Shown here: in pieces, positions 233 to 25,742 of the stretch
Layout: each line of letters begins with the position of its first letter
How positions within the stretch are numbered: position 1 is the first letter of the stretch
Source of the DNA: Elainellaceae cyanobacterium
Lineage (GTDB): Bacteria > Cyanobacteriota > Cyanobacteriia > Elainellales > Elainellaceae
Reading direction: 5' to 3'
DNA: 25,987 nucleotides
Assembly: GCA_044356135.1 (NCBI GenBank)
Contig: JBIKWV010000001.1
Span: 1 to 25,987, forward strand
Notes under the pieces: model-generated
What the model saw: only the letters and a program-made list of their open reading frames with translations
What the model was told of the DNA's origin: nothing
Databases searched by the model: none
Made by a program: the position numbers and the translations under genes

Positions 233-3200
233 GTGAACCCTTCAAATTCACGCCTGGACGGCTTTTCAGAGAAAATTGAGCGCGAATTTTGCGAGGGTTC
301 TGCGATCGCTCAACCGCTATTCAATACGGCGGTCAGAGTCGTTGAGGACACTGGGTTCTGGGAGCCTAACGTTGCACTAAATCAGCACGTTTCCCGCTTC
401 TACGAAACGCGCAGACCGCACCATTTCAGCGCGATCGCTTTTTTCCAGCAAGAAGTTGGAGAGCTTTGGCAAGGGAAGCCAGAATGCCCAAGGATTGACC
501 CCAAAAAGGACACTCCGATCAAATACGAAAACCCCGCAGGCATTGGAGCGCGGGGCTACCTGCCGCCAGTTCCACCAGAAATTCGGCAAACAATTGGCGA
601 TCGCTTTGGGTGCGGCATTCCACTGGAGGGCAGCTTCTGGGAGTGGCTTGAGCAACACCCGGAAATTCCCGTAATCCTGACGGAGGGCGGGAAAAAAGCG
701 CTTTGCCTGCTCAGCCTGGGCTATGTGGCGATCGCTCTCACTGGCGTTTATGGTGGGCACGTCGTCAATGAAACGATTGCAGGACAGAAGGTAAGACTTG
801 CTGCTCCTCACCTGATTCCCGACCTGGACCGGTTCGCAGCGCCAGGGCGGCGATTTATTCTCGCGTTTGACCAGGATGCAAAGCAGGAGACCCGCGAACG
901 GGTGGATATCGCCATACATGGCCTATCAGCTCTGCTGACCCAATCTGGTAGTCTGGCGCAGATTGCATCCTGGGACGGAGCCACTGGAAAGGGCATTGAT
1001 GACTACTGCGTTGCGGATGGAGCCGCGGCGGTGGAACAGACCCTCGACGGAGCAGTTAGCTTTGAGGAATGGGCAATAGCCCGCAACATCGCGCGGCGGG
1101 TCCGTCGCAGGCCCAATCTCAATATCGGAGATTCAGAGTTCATTGAGTACGCAGATTCGCTACCTACAGCAGGAATTTTGGCGCTGTACGGGGGCAAGGG
1201 AACTGCCAAAAGCAAAGCCATTCACGCGCTAATCAAGGAGCGTTTCTGGCTGTCGGTTGCACCCCTGCAATCGATCGCTCGTGAGCAGGCGGAGAACTGG
1301 GGCGGAGCGTTCGTCAATGATGGCGACAGCTTCAACGGCATGTTGCTGAATGAACACAACCAGCCAGTCAAAGGCGGCTCTGTATGCCCACCATCACTCC
1401 TGAAAGTGCTGAAGGTAGAGTGCGATGTGCTGGTTCTAGACGAGCTGGTGGCCGCACTTCGATTCCTGCTGGAGTCGAGATTAGCCAATAAGGACGGCAT
1501 CAGACCCCTGCTGCTAACGGAGCTGGAGCGCAGAATCAAAACTGCGCGGTTGGTGATTTTGGCAGATGCAGACCTGACAGAGGAAGCGATCGCGTTTGTC
1601 GAAAACATCCGAGGGGAGCGGGCGTTTCTGGTGCGCTCCGAACGCAAGCCATTGACCTGGCAAGCCAGCATCATCGACGGCAGCGAACGGGAGGCGATCG
1701 CGCAGTTTCTGGAGCAGGCAGAGGCGCTGCCAGACGACAAGGTGATTTATCTCAACTCCGACAGCAAGGCGCTGGTGAACACCCTGGTCGGGCTGCTTAC
1801 AGAGCGGGGCATCAAATCCTTGCCCATTACTCAGGACACCAGCAGCGGCGACATAGAACGCAGTTTTTTAGCTTCTAAGGGGCACGATCTGCCTTTGCTG
1901 GTCAGAGATGGGGTGAAAGTGATTCTGAGCAGCCCCAGCGTCACCCAGGGTTTCAGTATTGAGCAGAACACCAACCTGGTGGATTCCGTCTGGGGCATTT
2001 ACCAGGGGGTGAGCATCTCTGCTGACGCGATCGCGCAGGCGATGGACCGCGTTCGATCGATGGTTCCAAGAACACTCTGGGTGGCGAAGAAGGGGCGTGC
2101 ATATAGTCGAATTTCAAGGGCAACCAATGCCCGTGAGTTCCTGCGCGAGTTCAAGTCTGCCAGCACGGCCACTGCTCGAATAGCGCGGCTCTCGCTGAAA
2201 CCATCTACCGCTAGAACTGCCGACGGCATTGATTGGGAGTCTGAGCATCTTAGACTGCTGGCAGAGCTGGAGGCCGCCAGAAATCGCGGCATGGTTGCAC
2301 TGCGCTCAACTGTTGTTGCGCTTCTCAAGCATGAAGGTAAGCGGATAGAGTTCATCCCTCCAGCGGTTTCCCCAGTTGATGTGGAGCTGCTGGGCGCTGA
2401 AATTCGCAAACTGCGGGAGAAAGCCGAGCAGGAGCGGATGAATGCAATGCTCAAGGAGCGAGATATATCCGACGACGAAGCGGCGGCGCTGGAGCGCAAA
2501 GCGCAGACTGAAGTGCTGAGTCCCTCAGAAGCAAACTGCCTGAAAAAATTCTATCTGCGTCGGTTTTACCGGGTGGAAACTGTGACGGCGGCTTTAGTTG
2601 TTGGCGATCGCAACGGCAAAACCCAAACGGAAATTATCAACCTCGAAACGGCACTGGATGAAGCAGCGGCGCTGGAGCGCAGCGCCAGGTCTATCGAAAA
2701 AAGTCCTACCACTCCGCAGGATTGGAATCCAGCAGCACTACGCCGATGGTTGCTGGCACAATCAGGGGGACTGAAGCTGATCCAGGACATCTGGAGCAGC
2801 CAAATAGAGGAGCTGCGGGAGGAGCTGTGGCGGCCCGTCGCTCAGGCGATGCAGCGGCATAGCAGAGAGTTCAAAATTGCCTTTAAATTCAGCAATATCG
2901 ACAAGGTTGAGCCATTCCAGGCGATCGCCACTTTACTGGACTGGTGCGGTATCAAACGGATCAGGCACAGACGGCGCATGGGGAAGGAGGTTTTGAGCTT
3001 CTACACCATCGATTCTGCCCATCTGGAGCGAGTCAGGGCTATTGTGCGCCGACGGGCACAGGCCGATCCACCCCCCCAAGAAAGTGACTTTTACCAGGGG
3101 GGTGGATCGGTCCCAGACTGGGATGCGCTAAGGACTGTAATTACCTTTGCCATACAAAGAGGGGAGTTTCAGCCCCAGCAAGTTCCTGACCTAGAGGAGC

Positions 3201-3400
3201 ATGGAACGGCGATCTCGATGGCAACCAGCAGGCCCGCTGTAGAAGTGCTGCCTCACCTGGTTACCGAATGGAGGTTCTTGTCGCCAGAGGTTAAAGCAGA
3301 CCTGTGCGAGATGTGGGATACCGCAGATGCAGAGAATCTCTTCCTCATCCTGCGCGACATCTGGGCGCTTGTAGACTCACTCCGGAGGGCTGCTGCATGA
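233..3400 (+). CDS. repA: Plasmid replication initiator, DUF3854 (Toprim-like) primase plus SF2-like helicase (CyRepA1/Slr7037 type)
   Basis: HPEIPVILTEGGKKA...LGYVAIALTGV and FILAFDQD (DUF3854); deviant Walker A GGKGTAKS; Walker B VLVLDE; SPSVTQGFSI and QAMDRVR resemble SF2 motifs V/VI; GTG start after a G-rich RBS. Confidence 0.9.
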   Translation: MNPSNSRLDGFSEKIEREFCEGSAIAQPLFNTAVRVVEDTGFWEPNVALNQHVSRFYETRRPHHFSAIAFFQQEVGELWQGKPECPRIDPKKDTPIKYENPAGIGARGYLPPVPPEIRQTIGDRFGCGIPLEGSFWEWLEQHPEIPVILTEGGKKALCLLSLGYVAIALTGVYGGHVVNETIAGQKVRLAAPHLIPDLDRFAAPGRRFILAFDQDAKQETRERVDIAIHGLSALLTQSGSLAQIASWDGATGKGIDDYCVADGAAAVEQTLDGAVSFEEWAIARNIARRVRRRPNLNIGDSEFIEYADSLPTAGILALYGGKGTAKSKAIHALIKERFWLSVAPLQSIAREQAENWGGAFVNDGDSFNGMLLNEHNQPVKGGSVCPPSLLKVLKVECDVLVLDELVAALRFLLESRLANKDGIRPLLLTELERRIKTARLVILADADLTEEAIAFVENIRGERAFLVRSERKPLTWQASIIDGSEREAIAQFLEQAEALPDDKVIYLNSDSKALVNTLVGLLTERGIKSLPITQDTSSGDIERSFLASKGHDLPLLVRDGVKVILSSPSVTQGFSIEQNTNLVDSVWGIYQGVSISADAIAQAMDRVRSMVPRTLWVAKKGRAYSRISRATNAREFLREFKSASTATARIARLSLKPSTARTADGIDWESEHLRLLAELEAARNRGMVALRSTVVALLKHEGKRIEFIPPAVSPVDVELLGAEIRKLREKAEQERMNAMLKERDISDDEAAALERKAQTEVLSPSEANCLKKFYLRRFYRVETVTAALVVGDRNGKTQTEIINLETALDEAAALERSARSIEKSPTTPQDWNPAALRRWLLAQSGGLKLIQDIWSSQIEELREELWRPVAQAMQRHSREFKIAFKFSNIDKVEPFQAIATLLDWCGIKRIRHRRRMGKEVLSFYTIDSAHLERVRAIVRRRAQADPPPQESDFYQGGGSVPDWDALRTVITFAIQRGEFQPQQVPDLEEHGTAISMATSRPAVEVLPHLVTEWRFLSPEVKADLCEMWDTADAENLFLILRDIWALVDSLRRAAA
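3063..3110. repeat. 14-bp perfect inverted repeat with 20-nt spacer inside the 3' end of rep
   Basis: CCGATCCACCCCCC (3063-3076) and GGGGGGTGGATCGG (3097-3110) are exact reverse complements. Confidence 0.9.
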
Positions 3401-4499: not shown

Positions 4500-4799
4500 T
4501 TGAGGCCGATTTTGAGTAACTTTAACTTCTTGTTCGATGAAAACCAATTTCTGCGGGAGAATGCCAAGTATTTTGCGCAGGGAGAAGGATTCAGTCACCC
4601 AGAGTTCAACTTGACCAAGCAGGGGACCTTGCTGCGAGCCTACCCCCATCTTGCCGATAAGCTTAAGGCTGCTGGAGAGAGCGAGACCCGCCTATGCAAA
4701 GTCGCGCTTGATAAGCTCAAGGCGGATGAGCAGGATCTGCTGGAAAAGTTCACTGTTGTTCGCGGAAAAATCGCCAAACTCCAGTCCCGCCGCCCATGA
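4500..4799 (+). CDS. Hypothetical protein with C-terminal coiled coil
   Basis: 99-aa ORF with TTG start, co-oriented with sprT; heptad-like C-terminus (LDKLKADEQDLLEKFTVVRGKIAKLQ). Confidence 0.45.
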   Translation: MRPILSNFNFLFDENQFLRENAKYFAQGEGFSHPEFNLTKQGTLLRAYPHLADKLKAAGESETRLCKVALDKLKADEQDLLEKFTVVRGKIAKLQSRRP

Positions 4800-4989
4800 T
4801 GATTGTCGATGAGTCCAGGCGATCGCGTCACCGCAGTAGACTCCGCCGCTGTATCTGTAGCCGGTGGTGGTTTAGGCTGTGGCACTGGCTCCTGTGGAGG
4901 GCGATCGCTCCAGCCGTGGGGTGAGGATCTGCAACGGTGGGGTGTTGCAACTCCTATAAGTTGCAGCACCGCTCACTGTACTACCGCAT

Positions 4990-5051
4990 ACCGCAGAGCC
5001 AAAAGCCTTACCTGGCGATCGCCCGCCAGGTAAGGCTTTTGGCTCTGCGGT
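4990..5051. repeat. 28-bp perfect inverted repeat with a HIP1 site at its apex (hairpin or bidirectional terminator)
   Basis: ACCGCAGAGCCAAAAGCCTTACCTGGCG (4990-5017), 6-nt loop, exact reverse complement at 5024-5051; GCGATCGC at 5015-5022; lies between convergent genes. Confidence 0.9.
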
Positions 5052-5977: not shown

Positions 5978-6000
5978 TAGTACCTAACTGTTAGGTACTA
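5978..6000. promoter_or_regulatory. Palindromic operator upstream of the MT-A70 gene
   Basis: TAGTACCTAAC-T-GTTAGGTACTA, perfect 11-bp arms, 6 nt upstream of the ATG; a TACAAT -10-like hexamer lies next to it on the minus strand. Confidence 0.55.
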
Positions 6001-6015
6001 TTGTATATTCCCATA

Positions 6016-6030
6016 AAGGTATTAGACCTT
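6016..6030. repeat. par-associated site copy 1 (AAGGTATTAGACCTT)
   Basis: Identical 15-mer at 7258-7272; 13-bp inverted copy at 6915-6927. Confidence 0.75.
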
Positions 6031-6077
6031 AATGATTTATAGACTTAAAACCTTAATAGGCAAAAGCTATTAAGAAT

Positions 6078-6497
6078 TTATAGGTTTAGAGCTTTTCTCA
6101 AGTCCTGAATACTGCGAATCTCATCCCAGTTTACGTCTGTAGCCTTGAGCAGCTCTACTGCCGTCTGAATGAGGTGCTGAGGGTAGACGCGATCGCTTGC
6201 TGGTACCGGGGCATCGTTGTTCTGCCTCACCTGTTTTGCCGTATCAGCGAGCCACTCCTGCTGTGATTCGAGAATTTTGATATTCACAGTCACTAAACGC
6301 TCCTTTTGCTTCTGGGTTCGTTTTTTGGCAGCGGGTTTCTCTGTCGAGGGTTGGGGTGTTGCCTCCGGCGCTGGGGCAGTTGGGGGAGGTGGTTGAATAG
6401 ACTCCTGCTGGGGTGGTGTTGCAGCGGGCGCTGGTGCAGGAGTAGGCTTTCCCCCAAAATCTCTCAACCCCAGTCCCCCCATTCTTTTCTGGCTCAT
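6078..6497 (-). CDS. ParA partner / putative centromere-binding protein (type Ib-like)
   Basis: ATG at 6497 overlaps the parA stop (ATGA); Pro/Ala-rich disordered N-terminus followed by a folded C-terminal domain (LVTVNIKILESQQEWLADTA...), the usual layout of small ParA partners. Confidence 0.75.
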   Translation of the reverse strand: MSQKRMGGLGLRDFGGKPTPAPAPAATPPQQESIQPPPPTAPAPEATPQPSTEKPAAKKRTQKQKERLVTVNIKILESQQEWLADTAKQVRQNNDAPVPASDRVYPQHLIQTAVELLKATDVNWDEIRSIQDLRKALNL

Positions 6498-7225
6498 TTT
6501 TTCAGACCCCACAGTTTGACGACTTCTTTCCCCAGCGACTTATAGGCGATAGCTCCGCTGCTCGACGGCGCGTACTCCAGAACGGGCTTCTGTTGAGCGA
6601 TCGACTCTGCCACCGTGATGTTTTCGGGAATAGCTGTGTAGAGCAGGTGATAGCCGAGATCCGATGCTCCTGTTACCAGAAGGTCATCAGCCTCCCTGGT
6701 AAGCACCAAGTTGCGTTTGTATCTGCTCCGCAGCACGTCGATAGGCTTATCGGGGCTGTCGTCCCTGATGAGGGCGATTGCCTCACTCAACCCTTTTAAG
6801 GCGGCTGGTTCTGGCAGCGTGGGCAGCAGCACTCTATCTGCTGCAAGGATGGCCTGCACTGAAACAAAACCCAGATTGGGAGGGCAATCGAGCATTACCA
6901 CATCATGCTCTAATGGTCTAATACCTTTAAGGGATTTTGGGAATAAATCATCATCCGATGTGAGGCGAAACATCCCAATATCGCCGGGAATGACAAACAG
7001 GTTTTTCGACTGTGTGACTTGTGGCGCGATCGCCTCATCCTGGGTTAGCCAATCAAGTGCTGTTGGCTCGCTGCCGTCGAGGCCCAAACCAAAGGACATC
7101 GTTCGCTGTCCGTCGAGGTCAATCAGCAGCACCCGATGAGTTTTTGCCAGGGCAGCGCCCAGGTTAATAGCAGTGGTTGATTTTGATGTGCCACCCTTCA
7201 GATTCCAAATAGCGACTGTCAGCAT
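6494..7225 (-). CDS. parA: ParA family partition ATPase
   Basis: NLKGGTSKST deviant Walker A; VLLIDLDGQ; VVMLDCPP Walker B; AADRVLLP; IPENITVAESIAQQKPVLEYAPSS. Confidence 0.95.
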   Translation of the reverse strand: MLTVAIWNLKGGTSKSTTAINLGAALAKTHRVLLIDLDGQRTMSFGLGLDGSEPTALDWLTQDEAIAPQVTQSKNLFVIPGDIGMFRLTSDDDLFPKSLKGIRPLEHDVVMLDCPPNLGFVSVQAILAADRVLLPTLPEPAALKGLSEAIALIRDDSPDKPIDVLRSRYKRNLVLTREADDLLVTGASDLGYHLLYTAIPENITVAESIAQQKPVLEYAPSSSGAIAYKSLGKEVVKLWGLKK

Positions 7226-7257
7226 TTCGCCCTCACATCTAATGGTGAAATCCTAAC

Positions 7258-7272
7258 AAGGTATTAGACCTT
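7258..7272. repeat. par-associated site copy 3 (AAGGTATTAGACCTT), in the parA promoter region
   Basis: Identical to 6016-6030; 32 nt upstream of the parA start. Confidence 0.75.
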
Positions 7273-15341: not shown

Positions 15342-15989
15342 TCAGCGACTGAACGGCGCGGGTGGCTCCTTTCCTCTGCAAATTCTTGTGTAACTTCTTG
15401 TGGAATTGGCGGGATAGTTACACAAGAATTTTGCGTTGGCTTGGGGTTCTGATGTTGGGCGCGGCTCTTGAGCCTGGGGGCTTGATTGGTCAATATAGCG
15501 ACTGGCTCGCAGGTCTAAAATCGATGAAGATTGAGGCTGATTTGCCCTGGGGATTCCCAGAGAGAAGCCTGGGTAAAGAGTTCTGAGCAACGCATAAAGG
15601 CATCCCCCGATTACGATCGCACCCACGAGTTGCCCCCAGAATGATGGAGTATCAACTCCCCGCTCAAAGTCATAGCGGTAGGTGCCGCGCCGATTCTGGT
15701 TGGTCTTGGGTTTCGGGCGCTGTTCATTGTAGTCGCCCAGTTCCTGAATCCAATAGGCTTCGGCCTCATCCAATTCATGCTGCGGGCACTCCTCAATCAC
15801 TTCCAGTGCAAAGGAGTTTATGCCATACTTCCTCCAGTCGCGTTGGAGGCCGTCGCAGCAGTGCCTTCCGCGTTCGAGATCACGAATATGCTGGTCCCAT
15901 CGAACACGAACGTCTTTGGCCTGCCCGATGTAGCACTGGCCATTCTTCAGACAAGTGATTTTGTAAATGCCACAAGTCATGTCTACCAC
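15342..15989 (-). CDS. GIY-YIG endonuclease with a C-terminal transmembrane segment
   Basis: GIYKITCLKNGQCYIGQA..RW..H...F.LEVIEEC...AEAYWIQEL; hydrophobic FWGQLVGAIVIGGCLYALL; overlaps the ATPase stop. Confidence 0.85.
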   Translation of the reverse strand: MVDMTCGIYKITCLKNGQCYIGQAKDVRVRWDQHIRDLERGRHCCDGLQRDWRKYGINSFALEVIEECPQHELDEAEAYWIQELGDYNEQRPKPKTNQNRRGTYRYDFERGVDTPSFWGQLVGAIVIGGCLYALLRTLYPGFSLGIPRANQPQSSSILDLRASRYIDQSSPQAQEPRPTSEPQANAKFLCNYPANSTRSYTRICRGKEPPAPFSR

Positions 15990-18211
15990 TCAGCTTTAGT
16001 AGGTGAATTGCCGCGCAGCACCCACCGAAGCGTGATACCATCACCGAAGGTTTTGCCGCATCCGGCTTGTGCTAATTCGCGGAACAGATTGCGAATTGAT
16101 GCCGTGTCGATGTCCTCGGTGCGGAGGATATATTGCTTCACTTCGCTGGCCGATAACTCCCTCCCCCACCAGTTTTTGCTCTGGTAATACTCCAGAATCT
16201 TTTGGGCGAGGGCCGACAGCTTTGGGGCTGGTGCAGGTGCCGACGGAGTTTCGGGCGATCGCTCCTGGGTGGGTGCGCTGCCATCCCGGTGCATCCGCCA
16301 GTAGTTGCCCTCATGTGAAAACTGCCCAATCCTCAGCACACTGCCCAGGTCTTCCAGAAACATCTGGAAGTTGAGCTTATCGGGAATCTGACCCCATCCC
16401 TGCCGCAGTGCGTCCACCTTTGCCCACCCTTGCAGGCCAGCATTGCCAGCCTGCGATCGCGTCAGCCACTGCAAGAACTCGAAGGCATTTGGCACCTTCG
16501 CGCAATACTCTTGAAATCGTCTCAGCCTAGCAACTGGGTCATCTTGTACAGGCGGCTCTGGTGCAGACGGTTCAGGCGGGGGCGGCTGCATCCCTGCCGG
16601 GTTGCCAGCAGCATCCAGCATCGGAATCTTCACGCAAAACCAGCGGGTACGCCAGTAAGCGATCGCCGGGTAAGCCTTCCCAGCCTGAATATCAGCGTCG
16701 GTCTTCAGCAGCTCAACGATGGCTTTGCGCAGATGCTCCTGGTCCTTCGCGCCCAACTTGAGCATCTTTTCATCAGCGAACGCCTTCTGAATGCCACCGA
16801 TGCCGGGGAACAGGATGAGCATCCCATCCCGGCGATCGGCACTCATGCCAAGCATTTTTGCCACCAGGTCAACGGAGACGATGCACAGTCGAGCGTTAGC
16901 CTTCCGGGTCAGCGACCCGAACATATTGATCCAGGTGTCCAGGAGTTTGGCCTGCTTCTGTCCCTGGCCGAGGATGGCAGGGATTGTAAAACTGGCTTCT
17001 TCCAGCACCCGAAACAGGCCGGGGAAGACAGCCTGCCCTGCACGGTACTGGCTCTGGCGAGACTCCGGCCCCTCCCCTGTGATCGCCTCAATATCAGCGG
17101 CCATCTGTTCAGACATTTCGCCATAGGTCGGGACAATTTTGTAACCGTCCCACTCTTCAGGTCTACCGTAGCTGTCCAGCACGACACCATCAGCAGGGGC
17201 ATTGCCATCGAACAGAACGTACCGTGCAAGATATTTGACGAGGCGGCTCTTGCCGCCACCCTGGTCGGCGATGCACCCAAAAATGGGGAACTGATCAATG
17301 TCCTTGAGTTGTAATAGGTCAAACCATTCCACAGCAGTCTGGGCGGTGCCCAGGTTCTCCAGCGCAGACACCAGATCATTCACCATGTCCTGGGGCGAGA
17401 AGCTGACCCCAGGCTGCGGCTGCGGAATATGCGTAGGTGGTGCAGGTATTTCATTGCCGAAGAACCTGCCGCCCTGCAATCCCCCGCCAGGGATCTGAGG
17501 TAGCCAGCCAGTGCCCGGAAGCGCAGGTTCTACCCGGCCCTCAATGGTGGCATAAGCCGGAGGCTGGGAATACCGTGGCTCATCCCGCCGCACATGGTTG
17601 CGCACCTGCTCCATCGTCGGCAACTCATGAGACTTTCGGACATGGTTGACGATGAAGATGTATGCCTGCTCCCGTCGTTCCCACTGGATATCCAGCAGCA
17701 TGGCCAGCAGGCTTTCATCTTCAAATGCCAGCAGGGTGTATTCTGCCTCCAGTTCCGCTTCCAGGTAGCGAGCCAGACGACTGATGACCGATTCATCCTC
17801 AATCTGAACGGCATCCTCTTCACCGTGCAGCTTCGCGCCGACAGCCTGAAGGCGACGGCCAGCATCACCCCTGAAGAAGGGAATGGCGGACCACCGATTA
17901 GTGATCTGTTTATCGATGACGGTGGCCGCAGCCCAGACGGATATGCCACCGAGAACACCAATGAGAGCCATCGGGCCAGCGAACGCTGACAGAGCGACTG
18001 AGAATGCAGAGACACCCAGACCGGAGGCTTTGGTGCTATCGCACCCTCCCCGAATGGAGAGGGCACGATGCTCCAGCATCTGTCGCCGGAACGCGATCGC
18101 CTGCGCTGGGTCATCCTCCAGCAACTCCAGGAAAGTATCCTTCCAGTTCTCGTCAGGTGTCATTTGAATCGGGGGCGGATCTTGAATAGTGGGGATGGTA
18201 TTGATGCTCAT
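15983..18211 (-). CDS. Membrane-anchored FtsK/HerA-like P-loop ATPase with C-terminal winged-helix-like domains
   Basis: Two adjacent N-terminal hydrophobic segments; Pro-rich linkers; Walker A ADQGGGKS; Walker B-like FRVLEE; LTRKANARLCIVS; helical C-terminal domain LSALAQKILEYY...LSASEVKQ...IRNLFRELAQAGCG. Confidence 0.7.
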   Translation of the reverse strand: MSINTIPTIQDPPPIQMTPDENWKDTFLELLEDDPAQAIAFRRQMLEHRALSIRGGCDSTKASGLGVSAFSVALSAFAGPMALIGVLGGISVWAAATVIDKQITNRWSAIPFFRGDAGRRLQAVGAKLHGEEDAVQIEDESVISRLARYLEAELEAEYTLLAFEDESLLAMLLDIQWERREQAYIFIVNHVRKSHELPTMEQVRNHVRRDEPRYSQPPAYATIEGRVEPALPGTGWLPQIPGGGLQGGRFFGNEIPAPPTHIPQPQPGVSFSPQDMVNDLVSALENLGTAQTAVEWFDLLQLKDIDQFPIFGCIADQGGGKSRLVKYLARYVLFDGNAPADGVVLDSYGRPEEWDGYKIVPTYGEMSEQMAADIEAITGEGPESRQSQYRAGQAVFPGLFRVLEEASFTIPAILGQGQKQAKLLDTWINMFGSLTRKANARLCIVSVDLVAKMLGMSADRRDGMLILFPGIGGIQKAFADEKMLKLGAKDQEHLRKAIVELLKTDADIQAGKAYPAIAYWRTRWFCVKIPMLDAAGNPAGMQPPPPEPSAPEPPVQDDPVARLRRFQEYCAKVPNAFEFLQWLTRSQAGNAGLQGWAKVDALRQGWGQIPDKLNFQMFLEDLGSVLRIGQFSHEGNYWRMHRDGSAPTQERSPETPSAPAPAPKLSALAQKILEYYQSKNWWGRELSASEVKQYILRTEDIDTASIRNLFRELAQAGCGKTFGDGITLRWVLRGNSPTKAEW

Positions 18212-18243
18212 CGCTTTGCCCTGATGGTTCTGATGGTGCTGTT

Positions 18244-20448
18244 TTAGTCAAGCGTGGGAGCCTTGACGCCCGACTTTCGGAAGAGATGCGGTAGGGTGAT
18301 GCGGAATCCGGGATAGCTGCGGCCCATCCACACCCCAAAGGCTTCCGCGCCTGCAACGGAGGCACAGAACCAGAGGAAGTGCAGCATCGTAGAGTTGGCC
18401 GCAGGTGTGCCCATAAATGCCGCTCCACCTACCTGATCCAGCCAGGGATATTGGTTGTGGGCGGCAACTGCATCAATCGCCCAGAACAGTGCGGTAAACG
18501 CCAAGATTTTTATGTGGCGTCCCCAACCGTGGTTGGCGATCGCTTTGGCGTAGTGCTTCGCCATGTAGGTGGCACCAGGCTTGGGATTTGGCGTCTCAAA
18601 CTTCTCCGCTTCCTTGTAGCGGATTTGTTTCTCGCTCATGGTCATTGTGTTGAGTGAAGCGATTTCGACTGCCTGGACAGAAAAGGCAACGAATGCCATC
18701 ACCAGGGCATTTGGATTGAACAGTAGCGCACCCAGCATCACCAGGTTGGCCCCGTCATCAATGCCCGGTTTGGGCATGAATTTGAAAGTGGCCATTGATG
18801 GGACTGCGGTGACATAGTTCTCAATTGCCAAACCCAGGCAATACAGAAAACCTGCTCCCAGGTAAATCGTGTTGTAGGGGGGTTTGAAGCTCATCCAGAT
18901 GATCTGGCAGATTGTGCCCACCCAGAATGCCAGCTTTCCAAACAGCTCCACGGGCCGGGACTGATCCGGTGGCTGATACCTGGGAGGGGTGGCACTCTCG
19001 CGTTCCCTCCTGCGTTTTTCGGTGGCCTTCAGCCGACGATGGGTGCGATCGTCTGAAGGATTGCGACCATTGTTCTCGGTTTGATTGGTTGAGTTGGAGC
19101 CATTCACGGTTTCCCTTTTACCAACACCTTTGCCGTTGTAGATTGCCATTGTTCCGTAAAACTCCCTAACGTTATTGACAACTTGTTCGTAGGTGCCCTT
19201 GAAAGACCGAGTGCCACCACCAGAGGTAAACAACCGGACGTGATACCCTTCCTCCGGCGTCCAATCCACCTCACCAGAGAAGTCTGGTGAGATCTTCTTC
19301 AGTCCATCGATCATTGAGTCGAGCAAAGTTTCTCGACTCAACTCCTGGGTTTCCGCCTGGTCGATCGCTGTCAGTACCTCTTCAGCGGTGGCATCGGTCA
19401 ACATCGGAATAGAGGCACCCACCCTGGTCACGGTGAACTTGCCGCTTGCCCCGTTGCCTGTCCAGTCAACAACCCACCGCTGAGTTGATTCATTCTGACC
19501 ATTGACCCTGGCCCACTGTTGAGATTTTTGCCTGACCTGATAACGCAGCTTCTCCAGTTCGGTTGGTGGACGTGTCCCATTGTTGTAGGTTGGATTGTTC
19601 GTGGCCTTTTCCTGCTCACGAACAAAATCCAAAACCTCATCAAAGGTTGAACTGACCAGATGGACACCCTTGAGGCCATCCTCGTCCAAGTTGTATAGGC
19701 TTCCATTCCCCCAGCCAGAATTGCGGACGACTCGATAAGGGCGTTTTGAGATCTGAGCGATCGCCTGCCGCAGATGGTCCAGGTCATCACCCGCTCCAAC
19801 GCCTGGTGAATCGGCTCGCGCAGCAGTTGCAACGCTGGGCGTTGCAGCGCCGGATAGGCGCTCAATGATTTCGATGGTGTGTTCGTGGATAGCAACAGTG
19901 CGATCGCCCCAGAAGCTATGGCCTAGTAAACCAAAGCCATCATTACCTTCAGGCAGAAGGTTGACTTCCACATTCCAAACTGTAAGACAACCAACAGATA
20001 TTGATTCAAGCTCGAAGCGCTTACAGCGCACCAAACCGTTGGCGGTTTGCACATCAGTGAAGCCAACCTGCCGCTTCCGAACACCACCTATCTGCTCTCT
20101 GGTGAGCGCAACAGTGCTGCACCCGGTGTCCACTATCAGGAAGGCCGTATGGCGATCGCCCAGCACCACCTCAACAACCGGAATGTTGTTGCGCCGGAAC
20201 TCGATTGGTGTGCAGTAGCGCCGGGGGCGCTTCCCCATTCGCACCTGGATTTCAGCTTGTTCGTAAAAGCATTCTGAATTGCATTGATTACGAAAGGCAG
20301 GGATTCCTCCCTGGTAGTTCTGCTGCACGAACCACTCAATCTGCTGATCAGAAGAGTTTCTGATTTCCTCAGCAGTCTTATTCTGCCAGGGGAGACACTT
20401 TATGAGCCAGTCACGAGCGGCGAGTAATTGTGCATCACTTAGTTCCAT
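18244..20448 (-). CDS. Multidomain membrane protein with a retropepsin-like (clan AA) aspartic protease domain
   Basis: FLIVDTGCSTVAL...VQTANG...GLLGHSF; three internal repeats; multi-pass hydrophobic C-terminus. ATG 20448 with a GGAG RBS is preferred because the ORF-track extension overlaps the upstream gene. Confidence 0.8.
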   Translation of the reverse strand: MELSDAQLLAARDWLIKCLPWQNKTAEEIRNSSDQQIEWFVQQNYQGGIPAFRNQCNSECFYEQAEIQVRMGKRPRRYCTPIEFRRNNIPVVEVVLGDRHTAFLIVDTGCSTVALTREQIGGVRKRQVGFTDVQTANGLVRCKRFELESISVGCLTVWNVEVNLLPEGNDGFGLLGHSFWGDRTVAIHEHTIEIIERLSGAATPSVATAARADSPGVGAGDDLDHLRQAIAQISKRPYRVVRNSGWGNGSLYNLDEDGLKGVHLVSSTFDEVLDFVREQEKATNNPTYNNGTRPPTELEKLRYQVRQKSQQWARVNGQNESTQRWVVDWTGNGASGKFTVTRVGASIPMLTDATAEEVLTAIDQAETQELSRETLLDSMIDGLKKISPDFSGEVDWTPEEGYHVRLFTSGGGTRSFKGTYEQVVNNVREFYGTMAIYNGKGVGKRETVNGSNSTNQTENNGRNPSDDRTHRRLKATEKRRRERESATPPRYQPPDQSRPVELFGKLAFWVGTICQIIWMSFKPPYNTIYLGAGFLYCLGLAIENYVTAVPSMATFKFMPKPGIDDGANLVMLGALLFNPNALVMAFVAFSVQAVEIASLNTMTMSEKQIRYKEAEKFETPNPKPGATYMAKHYAKAIANHGWGRHIKILAFTALFWAIDAVAAHNQYPWLDQVGGAAFMGTPAANSTMLHFLWFCASVAGAEAFGVWMGRSYPGFRITLPHLFRKSGVKAPTLD

Positions 20449-20512
20449 CTGCAACACTCCATCATCTGTATAACGAAAGCGAACGCCAGACAAATAAGGC
20501 AGAAAACGACCC

Positions 20513-20962
20513 TCATCCGGGGTTCTCCGATTTGCATACGTTCGGGTCTGACCCGACCAGGTAAAACAACCCCTGATAAGCCTCCCCAACGCAGACGCCG
20601 CCCTGGTCGAAGATGCGGGTGCGCTGATTGGGATTGACTGTTGCCATGAAATCTCTGGGTGGCAAGTTTCCAGGACTGTACGTGTACCCCTGCAACACGA
20701 ACTGACTGGCCTCAACTACACCGTGCTCTTTGAATACATCAGATGTTGCGCGTTGCGTCATAGCCCAGGTCTGGTTGACGCTGGCGTTATAGGCCAGTTG
20801 ATCACGCTTGGCCGAAGCGATCATGTGCTGGCCATATTTGTACTGGATGGATGGCCATGCGGCCAAAACCACACTTGCCCCCAGTCCGAAGCTCACCCAC
20901 CGAAGGGTGCCAAGCTTCATAACTCGCTGCATGTTCGACTGCTGGTGCGAAATGTTTTGCAT
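20513..20962 (-). CDS. Hypothetical protein with N-terminal signal/TM anchor
   Basis: AGGAGG RBS before MQNISHQ; hydrophobic WVSFGLGASVVLAAW; C-terminal Cys pair. Confidence 0.75.
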   Translation of the reverse strand: MQNISHQQSNMQRVMKLGTLRWVSFGLGASVVLAAWPSIQYKYGQHMIASAKRDQLAYNASVNQTWAMTQRATSDVFKEHGVVEASQFVLQGYTYSPGNLPPRDFMATVNPNQRTRIFDQGGVCVGEAYQGLFYLVGSDPNVCKSENPG

Positions 20963-20985
20963 CCTGCTGTCCTCCTGAAAGGATA

Positions 20986-21180
20986 GAAAATTGATCAATT
21001 GAACAGAACCTGTGTGTTTTGGGCTTCTATTGGCCTTCAATTGATCAATTGATCAATATTGATCAATTCCTTCTATCGCCCACTGGGTGGGGATTGAAGC
21101 TTTCAATTGAAAAAATAGAAGAAAATTGAAGCCCGAAAAAATAGAAGCCTTCAATTGAAGGAATAGAAGGCTTCTATTGA
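20986..21180. repeat. AT-rich array of interleaved short palindromes
   Basis: ATTGATCAAT x4, TTCAATTGA x3, multiple ATAGAAG/CTTCTAT; 13-bp inverted repeat at 21140-21152/21166-21178. Confidence 0.85.
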
Positions 21181-25294: not shown

Positions 25295-25392
25295 AAAACG
25301 GGGAAATAGTAGGTTTGTACTTAACCCTGATTCTCCTCCAACTCCATCGCGTGTTTAACAAGTGATTGGCTAGTTGAATTTAACACCCAGTG

Positions 25393-25448
25393 AACTTTTT
25401 AACTTTTTAACTTTTGAACTTTTTAACTTTTTAACTTTTACACTTTTA
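25393..25448 (+). repeat. Tandem 8-bp AT-rich repeat (AACTTTTT consensus) x7
   Basis: AACTTTTT AACTTTTT AACTTTTG AACTTTTT AACTTTTT AACTTTTA CACTTTTA. Confidence 0.9.
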
Positions 25449-25742
25449 CACCTGACATTCTTCATCCTGTAGAGATTAGGACTACCATTTAGAGGGATCT
25501 GCGAGCGCTGAAAGCTAATAACAGAAACAAAATCAAGCGGTTTGATTTTTGTCTACTTTGGTAGGCGATTGCAGGGAAGTTGCAACAGAAGTTTTTCTGT
25601 ACCAAGTGAGGGCGTAAAAGAAAGACCGCCGAGGACTTGGCAGAACTTGGAGAGCTGGTATACGATCCGATCATTCAATCTACGCTCGAACGATCTACGC
25701 TCGAATTTTGAAGAATCCATATTTAGGGTCTTGGAGGCCACG

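Follow-up and report, generated by a model that had tools for sequence, protein, structure and literature searches.

What does a retrovirus-like protease do in one polypeptide with a bacterial membrane domain? The question is raised by a 734-residue protein (P0001, hereafter the target) encoded on the minus strand of a 25,987-nucleotide stretch of DNA from an Elainellaceae cyanobacterium (GenBank assembly GCA_044356135.1, contig JBIKWV010000001.1, positions 1 to 25,987). This stretch, called the window here, is an entire 26-kb contig of a metagenome-assembled genome (MAG) fragmented into 1109 contigs. An initial annotation had divided the target into five elements: a helical N-terminal domain, an aspartic protease, three repeat units, a linker and a membrane domain. 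Domain calls and AlphaFold2 (AF2) models agree with all five and with their positions (Table 1). The target is a variant of the bacterial membrane-associated retropepsin-like proteases, located in an unstudied plasmid module and carrying an orphan repeat region. Our favoured reading, to which we give a probability of about 0.55, is that of a mosaic, membrane-anchored protease facing the cytoplasm, which would be activated by dimerisation and would cleave itself at its linkers.

The aspartic protease is all that Pfam identifies in the whole open reading frame (ORF). Both Asp_protease_2 and gag-asp_proteas match (PF13975 at E 4e-9, PF13650 at E 2e-8), and the two scores of 37.3 and 35.5 bits lie above the gathering cut-offs of 28.2 and 24.3 bits, respectively. 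The TIGR02281 subfamily (clan_AA_DTGA) scores 33.7 bits, under its cut-off of 57.95. Downstream of the catalytic Asp-Thr-Gly (DTG), the hydrophobic-hydrophobic-Gly motif is present as LLG at residues 174-176, and the catalytic triplet is conserved as DTG or DSG in the homologs P0005 and P0148. The AF2 model, built on an alignment (A3) of the protease and membrane-family relatives, shows a beta-barrel at residues 77-195 with a predicted local distance difference test (pLDDT) score above 95. In Foldseek, the Rickettsia protease APRc (5c9f) comes first for this domain (E 5e-8, TM-score 0.69), followed by the proteases of the feline and human immunodeficiency viruses (FIV, HIV) and of equine infectious anaemia virus (EIAV), with E-values of 1e-4 to 1e-3. 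Searches of the ESM Atlas with the model matched cyanobacterial aspartyl protease clusters. The single-lobe DTG protease of the initial annotation is thus recovered by profile, motif and fold. Judged from sequence motifs and the modelled fold, the domain is a member of the retropepsin-like clan AA with intact catalytic motifs, for which activity and dimerisation are predicted. A second retropepsin-like gene, of chromosomal type, is found in the same genome (L002, G000:C644:2341-2709). It is 30% identical to the protease domain of the target, and the match contains one in-frame TGA.

The membrane domain belongs to a family of its own. A phmmer search with the full target against 1.84 billion representative proteins returned only protease domains, the small protein P0088 and about 20 membrane-family proteins. 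The latter are 230-290 residues long and match at residues ~470-720, with an E-value of 9e-47 for P0003. A family hidden Markov model (HMM) built without the target scores residues 468-708 at E 1e-45. The family shares the motifs PPG, EGYWQ, F-PKPF-DGA, Q-x-x-Q and GAE (alignment A2) and occurs in 13 of 401 cyanobacterial genomes, as a stand-alone protein in 12 of these 13, the window being the sole exception. The gene order of small protein, membrane protein and nucleoside triphosphatase (NTPase) is repeated in six further loci. Because of the HMM score and these conserved neighbours, sequence comparison shows that the membrane domain corresponds to the second gene in a conserved set of three, a backbone module of CyRepA-type cyanobacterial plasmids. 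With the full protein, neither a word-index search nor tblastn against PLSDB gave a match.

The multi-pass character of this domain, as well as the Asn/Gly-rich linker preceding it, had been read correctly from the beginning. Residues 437-465 are rich in Asn and Gly and disordered in the model (pLDDT <50), a helix follows at residues 465-485, and residues 465-497 contain 10 K+R with an isoelectric point (pI) of 10.8. Between residues 498 and 724, AF2 predicts five long hydrophobic and two amphipathic helices (pLDDT 50-78). Searches with the whole-model fold were dominated by the protease and added no information on this part. The family-mean number of K+R is 7.7 in the N-terminal tail, 7.7 in the loop at residues 600-641 and 3.1 in the C-terminal tail, and 0.1-0.2 in the loops at residues 520-525 and 667-682. 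The target ORF has no N-terminal signal peptide. Following the positive-inside rule over these counts, the N-terminal tail, the loop at residues 600-641 and the C-terminal tail are predicted to be cytoplasmic, and therefore also the N-terminal extension with the protease and the repeats.

The extension begins with the ~60-residue helical domain noted initially, which AF2 resolves into four helices (residues 5-18, 26-30, 34-44 and 48-59) with a pLDDT of ~80. A free-standing 66-residue protein, P0088, is over its full length 42% identical to residues 3-56 of the target (phmmer). The N-terminal module and the membrane domain are thus both found elsewhere as proteins on their own (P0088 and the stand-alone family), as would be expected of the parts of a polyprotein.

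The fusion of a protease to this membrane protein is not limited to the window. Two further proteins, P0005 (511 residues) and P0148 (567 residues), consist of an N-terminal domain, a protease 40-42% identical to that of the target, a basic linker and a membrane domain. Their lineage occupies the same gene slot: on one side lies a homolog of the small protein, on the other an NTPase that shares 62% identity with the one of locus L012. A tree built from 109 protease domains places the fused proteases of these three proteins together in one clade, which has no other member (Shimodaira-Hasegawa-like approximate likelihood ratio test, SH-aLRT, 94), and all three retain D-T/S-G and GLLGHSFWG. Because the fused protease domains are monophyletic and sit in the same slot, the sequences indicate that the fusion is inherited and maintained, and not an accident. 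Chance fusion of separate genes was the doubt raised in the initial annotation, and the relatives answer it in two ways: the membrane part is indeed separate in nearly all of them, but the fusion recurs and its proteases share one origin.

The N-terminus of the membrane protein also accepts other domains. P0149 and P0150 (L041:10001-11125) are 66-78% identical to P0005 from the linker onward, and their N-terminal domains are unrelated. The junction of this exchange is sharp, with ~66 residues lacking a protease in P0149 and P0150 versus 265 residues of N-terminal domain and protease in P0005 (L010:2649-4184). The gene of P0150 is complete and has the same surroundings. According to these alignments, unrelated domains replace one another in an N-terminal slot of the membrane protein.

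Between the protease and the linker, three units of ~65 residues with a helix-strands-helix order and similar ends had been proposed. Two AF2 runs, which had no alignment depth in this region, both predict an alpha-beta-beta-beta-alpha topology three times. When the units are aligned solely by their predicted element boundaries, the sum-of-pairs score lies at z = 5.3 relative to composition-matched shuffles (0 of 5000). This score is due to a motif at the start of helix 2, T-x-[DE]-[EQ]-V-[LV]-x-x-[VI]-[RD]-[EQ], which is in register at residues 268, 354 and 419. With the isolated repeat region, Foldseek retrieves from the PDB proteins with three double-stranded RNA-binding domains (dsRBDs), namely R2D2, Loqs-PB (Loquacious-PB) and DRB4 (E ~1e-3 for R2D2 and Loqs-PB), and from the AlphaFold database (AFDB) DRBM proteins aligned over most or all of the model (E 4e-4 to 1e-3). 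Since the predicted topology, the structure-anchored score and the three-dsRBD matches agree, the triple repeat holds as far as the predicted fold and one shared motif are concerned.

The suggestion of a dsRBD-like fold holds for the topology and the Foldseek matches and fails for the profile and for the basic RNA-contact motifs. The units resemble the tandem dsRBD proteins R2D2, Loquacious-PB and DRB4 in having three consecutive alpha-beta-beta-beta-alpha units of ~65-70 residues. They differ in being acidic (pI 4.9-5.3), in giving no dsRBD profile match (Pfam is silent for every unit at E up to 10) and in their helix 2, which begins with T-x-E-E-V instead of a KKxAK-type motif; the basic RNA-contact motif of this helix was not seen in the units. 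According to the models, the units are therefore of the dsRBD fold and not of the dsRBD family. Because of the same three features, binding of protein is more likely than binding of RNA. Weak Pfam matches to DUF7341, DUF7700 and DUF1522 were below threshold and were dropped. The repeat region has no homolog among the 1.84 billion representative proteins (phmmer) and 400 cyanobacterial genomes, and no relatives among metagenome contigs, genome contigs, PDB sequences and ESM Atlas features. It was also compared with the small N-terminal domains of P0149, P0150 and P0005, and no resemblance was found.

These elements suggest the following mode of action. The short basic cytoplasmic N-terminal tail of the membrane subunit of the module (here the C-terminal 237 residues) would have been extended by modules joined through flexible linkers, namely a domain of four helices, the single-lobe aspartic protease with its catalytic motifs intact, and the dsRBD-fold units in a tandem of three. 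Retropepsins are active only as homodimers, so that the activity of the target would depend on the pairing of membrane subunits, two of which would bring together a protease homodimer. Its likeliest first substrates would be its own disordered linkers, at residues ~60-76, 197-220, 283-296 and 437-497. Cleavage there would free the soluble modules and leave a canonical membrane subunit of ~250-300 residues. Self-processing in the manner of a viral polyprotein is plausible by analogy. It is the most economical reading because of the APRc precedent, the long low-confidence linkers and the presence elsewhere of at least two of the modules as free-standing proteins. That the released parts act as “effectors” is speculation.

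The closest precedent is APRc (RC1339) of Rickettsia conorii, which combines transmembrane helices with a retropepsin domain. It forms dimers and cleaves off its own flanking sequence, a reaction that depends on the catalytic Asp (PMC4140852). As in the target, a single-lobe DTG protease and transmembrane helices are part of one polypeptide, and 5c9f is the nearest solved structure as well as the top Foldseek match. In APRc, however, three N-terminal transmembrane helices precede the protease, which is described as membrane-embedded, whereas the protease of the target, for which a cytoplasmic location is predicted, lies N-terminal to a domain of 5-6 helices that belongs to an unrelated family. 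The gene is furthermore plasmid-borne, the protease has a helical module on one side and three repeats on the other, and the sequence identity is only ~20%. Like retroviral Gag-Pro-Pol, the target has a retropepsin set among modules with flexible linkers in between, and at least two of the neighbouring modules occur elsewhere as proteins of their own. It differs by the absence of a capsid, a reverse transcriptase and an integrase; it is a bacterial plasmid gene with a C-terminal polytopic anchor, and its processing is proposed by analogy.

Several observations weigh against this self-cleaving membrane protease. Its exact architecture is a singleton in the proteins, genomes and contig collections searched. 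The membrane domain of P0005 is linked to the main family, besides synteny, by an hhalign probability of 41% covering the core motif only. The topology evidence consists of charge counts only. For the repeats, pairwise Smith-Waterman comparisons between units are marginal (p = 0.012, 0.04-0.07 and 0.21), and unit 1 is modelled with low confidence (pLDDT ~45), as against middling values for unit 2 (~65) and good ones for unit 3 (~85). Taken singly, unit 3 matches dsRBDs, ribosome hibernation factors (HPF), T7 gp1.2 and aminotransferase subdomains in VIA-align with Z of 5-7; the tool itself warns that a common two-layer fold gives such values as background.

The best surviving alternative, which we consider somewhat doubtful, is an uncut and stable membrane protease that acts in trans on a cytoplasmic protein, the repeats serving as modules for the binding of substrates or partners. 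There are known cases of bacterial retropepsin-like proteases that are tethered to the membrane and cleave their substrates in trans. In SpoIIGA of Bacillus and PerP of Caulobacter, a membrane domain is combined with a dimerising aspartic protease that is directed towards one compartment and has a specific protein as its substrate. The combination of the two domains is the same in the target, but its membrane family is another one and it has extra repeats. With respect to SpoIIGA, the domain order is reversed, and Peptidase_U4 is absent from the Pfam matches at E up to 0.1. The acidic repeats would suit an action in trans, as their dsRBD-like fold is of a type often used in protein binding, and the genes are closely packed on one strand from 22464 to 15342. 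The substrate might be, for example, the neighbouring NTPase with its Pro-rich linkers or one of the upstream helix-turn-helix (HTH) proteins. Against it, the analysis brought up no candidate substrate, and most copies of the module work without a protease, which makes the protease dispensable for the core function of the module.

A more far-reaching version of self-processing appears unlikely. Here the target would be a true bacterial polyprotein with a polymorphic cargo slot, in which a protease triggered by assembly of the machine and its own dimerisation would cut the precursor, so that a helical protein and three proteins of the dsRBD fold would enter the cytoplasm. The host machine would then possibly be a membrane/ATPase apparatus of the plasmid, such as a TraB/FtsK-like DNA-transfer device.

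Quite improbable, in our view, is a recent, functionally neutral read-through between a gene for a soluble protease-repeat protein and a membrane gene, in which translation from Met434 would still supply the normal protein, the long form arising as a side product. Met434 lies about where the stand-alone homologs start: residue 29 of P0003 aligns with residue 467 of the target (phmmer), which places the start of P0003 near residue 439. This methionine, preceded by an AGGGAG hexamer, may have been the ancestral start of the membrane protein or may serve as an internal one, and the ordinary membrane protein might also be made alone from it. The uniqueness of the architecture would fit a recent event as well. 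However, there are two further protease-membrane fusions, whose protease domains are sister to that of the target, and no free-standing protease or protease-repeat gene was found near any of the stand-alone modules examined. The linker and the frame are also intact in four metagenomes, although these copies are clonal and carry little weight here.

An assembly or sequencing artefact that fused unrelated genes, for which the fragmentation of the MAG and a public gene call of 301 residues (P0002) might be invoked, is effectively refuted by metagenome contigs. Contigs from four lake-water metagenomes (four runs, four studies) match the target stretch with 0 substitutions and 0 indels, and an independent one covers 18625-20317, crossing all domain junctions. 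The ESM Atlas contains the 734-residue sequence letter for letter. Because these contigs are identical and one of them crosses every junction, the single 734-residue gene is real DNA and no chimera. P0002 was rejected as the true gene, since it is a contig-end artefact: it begins at the first ATG of a contig that has the sequence of the window and breaks off, with an open 5' end, 60 nt upstream of Met434. The reading frame of the target itself stays open further upstream, to 20715. The ATG at 20448 was chosen as start, with a GGAG at 20457-20460, 8 nt upstream; it comes after the stop of the preceding gene at 20513. Being clonal, the metagenome copies are uninformative on selection. Over positions 18000-20800 of the window, zero differences were seen in the lake-water metagenomes of the four studies, dated 2020-2024, which points to a clonal, widespread plasmid or host.

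Table 1. Position of the target, its parts and related genes in the window, with the evidence used.
Feature	Position	Strand	Basis
Whole ORF (P0001), 734 residues + stop	18244..20448	(-)	translation; GGAG; metagenome contigs
N-terminal four-helix module, residues 1-59	20272..20448	(-)	AF2; match to P0088
Retropepsin-like aspartic protease domain, residues 77-196	19861..20220	(-)	Pfam, AF2, Foldseek
Catalytic Asp-Thr-Gly, residues 107-109	20122..20130	(-)	local read ..LIVDTGCS..
Repeat unit 1, residues 221-282, helix/three strands/helix	19603..19788	(-)	AF2 (pLDDT as in text); TFDEVLDFVRE at 268
Repeat unit 2, residues 297-367	19348..19560	(-)	AF2 pLDDT 55-76; TAEEVLTAIDQ at 354
Repeat unit 3, residues 372-438	19135..19335	(-)	AF2 pLDDT 76-91; TYEQVVNNVRE at 419
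Met434 codon (19147-19149) and AGGGAG Shine-Dalgarno-like hexamer (19162-19167, 12 nt upstream), putative start	19147..19167	(-)	sequence
Linker, residues 439-497: Asn/Gly-rich disordered part, then strongly basic helix	18958..19134	(-)	AF2, charge count
Polytopic membrane domain, residues 498-734	18247..18957	(-)	phmmer, family HMM, motifs, hydropathy
Module gene 1, small bitopic protein, two conserved Cys in C-terminal domain	20513..21040	(-)	homology to L012 copy
Module gene 3, transmembrane-anchored P-loop NTPase, Pro-rich linkers, C-terminal domain	15983..18211	(-)	L012 homology; alignment A4
CyRepA1/DUF3854 replication protein	233-3400		plasmid-type gene of window

Bacterial retropepsin-like proteases are few and recently studied, with APRc, RimB and the Rlo enzymes as examples. 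To our knowledge, those that have been characterised are all described as surface-associated, secreted or soluble. A cytoplasm-facing retropepsin tethered to the membrane protein of a plasmid backbone, and joined to modules that exist elsewhere as separate genes, would offer a simple test case for polyprotein processing of the retroviral style in bacteria.

The stand-alone membrane proteins, such as WP_015173913.1 of Calothrix (pCAL6303.01) and P0003, agree with the target in family HMM, neighbours and gene order. Relatives of this kind are 230-350 residues long, almost all of them ~250, and possess only a short basic N-terminal tail, whereas the target has an N-terminal extension of ~435 residues. 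The first gene of the module is 40% identical (E 4e-34) to the gene upstream of P0003 in L012, and homologs are found at the equivalent position in L037, L032, L036 and L010. The module usually has a ParM-like gene and a CyRepA replication gene in its vicinity. In L012 (4365-6811), the module is directly followed by a pair resembling a cyclic-oligonucleotide-based anti-phage signalling system (CBASS), made of a patatin and a SMODS/DncV-like nucleotidyltransferase.

The NTPases of the third gene are 570-755 residues long, with N-terminal transmembrane segments, a conserved Walker A GKT/S (alignment A4) and a C-terminal domain. The closest relative of the window copy is that of L012 (E 8e-36), with 37-41% identity in the N- and C-terminal parts. 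Only the N-terminal 235 and the C-terminal 170 residues align between the two; the central P-loop domains could not be aligned, and at the Walker B position the window copy has VLEE, versus hhFDE in the family. This suggests a domain replacement or a strong divergence of the centre. Neither the target nor its two partners in the module had a match in PHROGs, NCBIfam or PADLOC, searches of Pfam, PADLOC and the PDB put no name on the NTPase family, and profiles of the membrane and NTPase families gave nothing but P-loop noise against PDB sequences. HerA/DUF87 and FtsK_SpoIIIE clusters are among the language-model feature neighbours of the NTPase, an affinity that Pfam does not support and that we regard as a lead only.

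The NTPase family was found on 55 PLSDB plasmids from Nostoc, Tolypothrix, Calothrix and others, where every copy is annotated as hypothetical. We flag this widespread, entirely unannotated three-gene module, together with the domain-exchange slot at the N-terminus of its membrane protein, as both are relevant to the plasmid biology of cyanobacteria used in biotechnology.

By its gene content, the window has the makings of a plasmid. Besides the CyRepA1/DUF3854 replication protein, library scans identify ParA, a ParE toxin, MT-A70, an Eco57I-like restriction-modification set, an integrase, a GIY-YIG nuclease and a ParM-like actin. The target ORF itself is part of the dense row of minus-strand genes mentioned above, and HIP1 sites (GCGATCGC) are present on the contig. 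A scan for promoters and terminators found no more sites than expected by chance. At 4990-5051, between an ORF (4640-4969) and the MT-A70 gene, two arms of 28 nt form a perfect inverted repeat around a 6-nt loop, which is probably a terminator. Sites resembling AAGGTATTAGACCTT (families D5, I2 and I5) are located within 6000-7272, on both sides of the parA operon and also inside it. At 25383-25454, about nine copies of an 8-nt unit, TTAACTTT / TGAACTTT, are arranged head to tail. If the contig is circular, these repeats lie upstream of the CyRepA gene, and they could be iterons or a centromere-like site.

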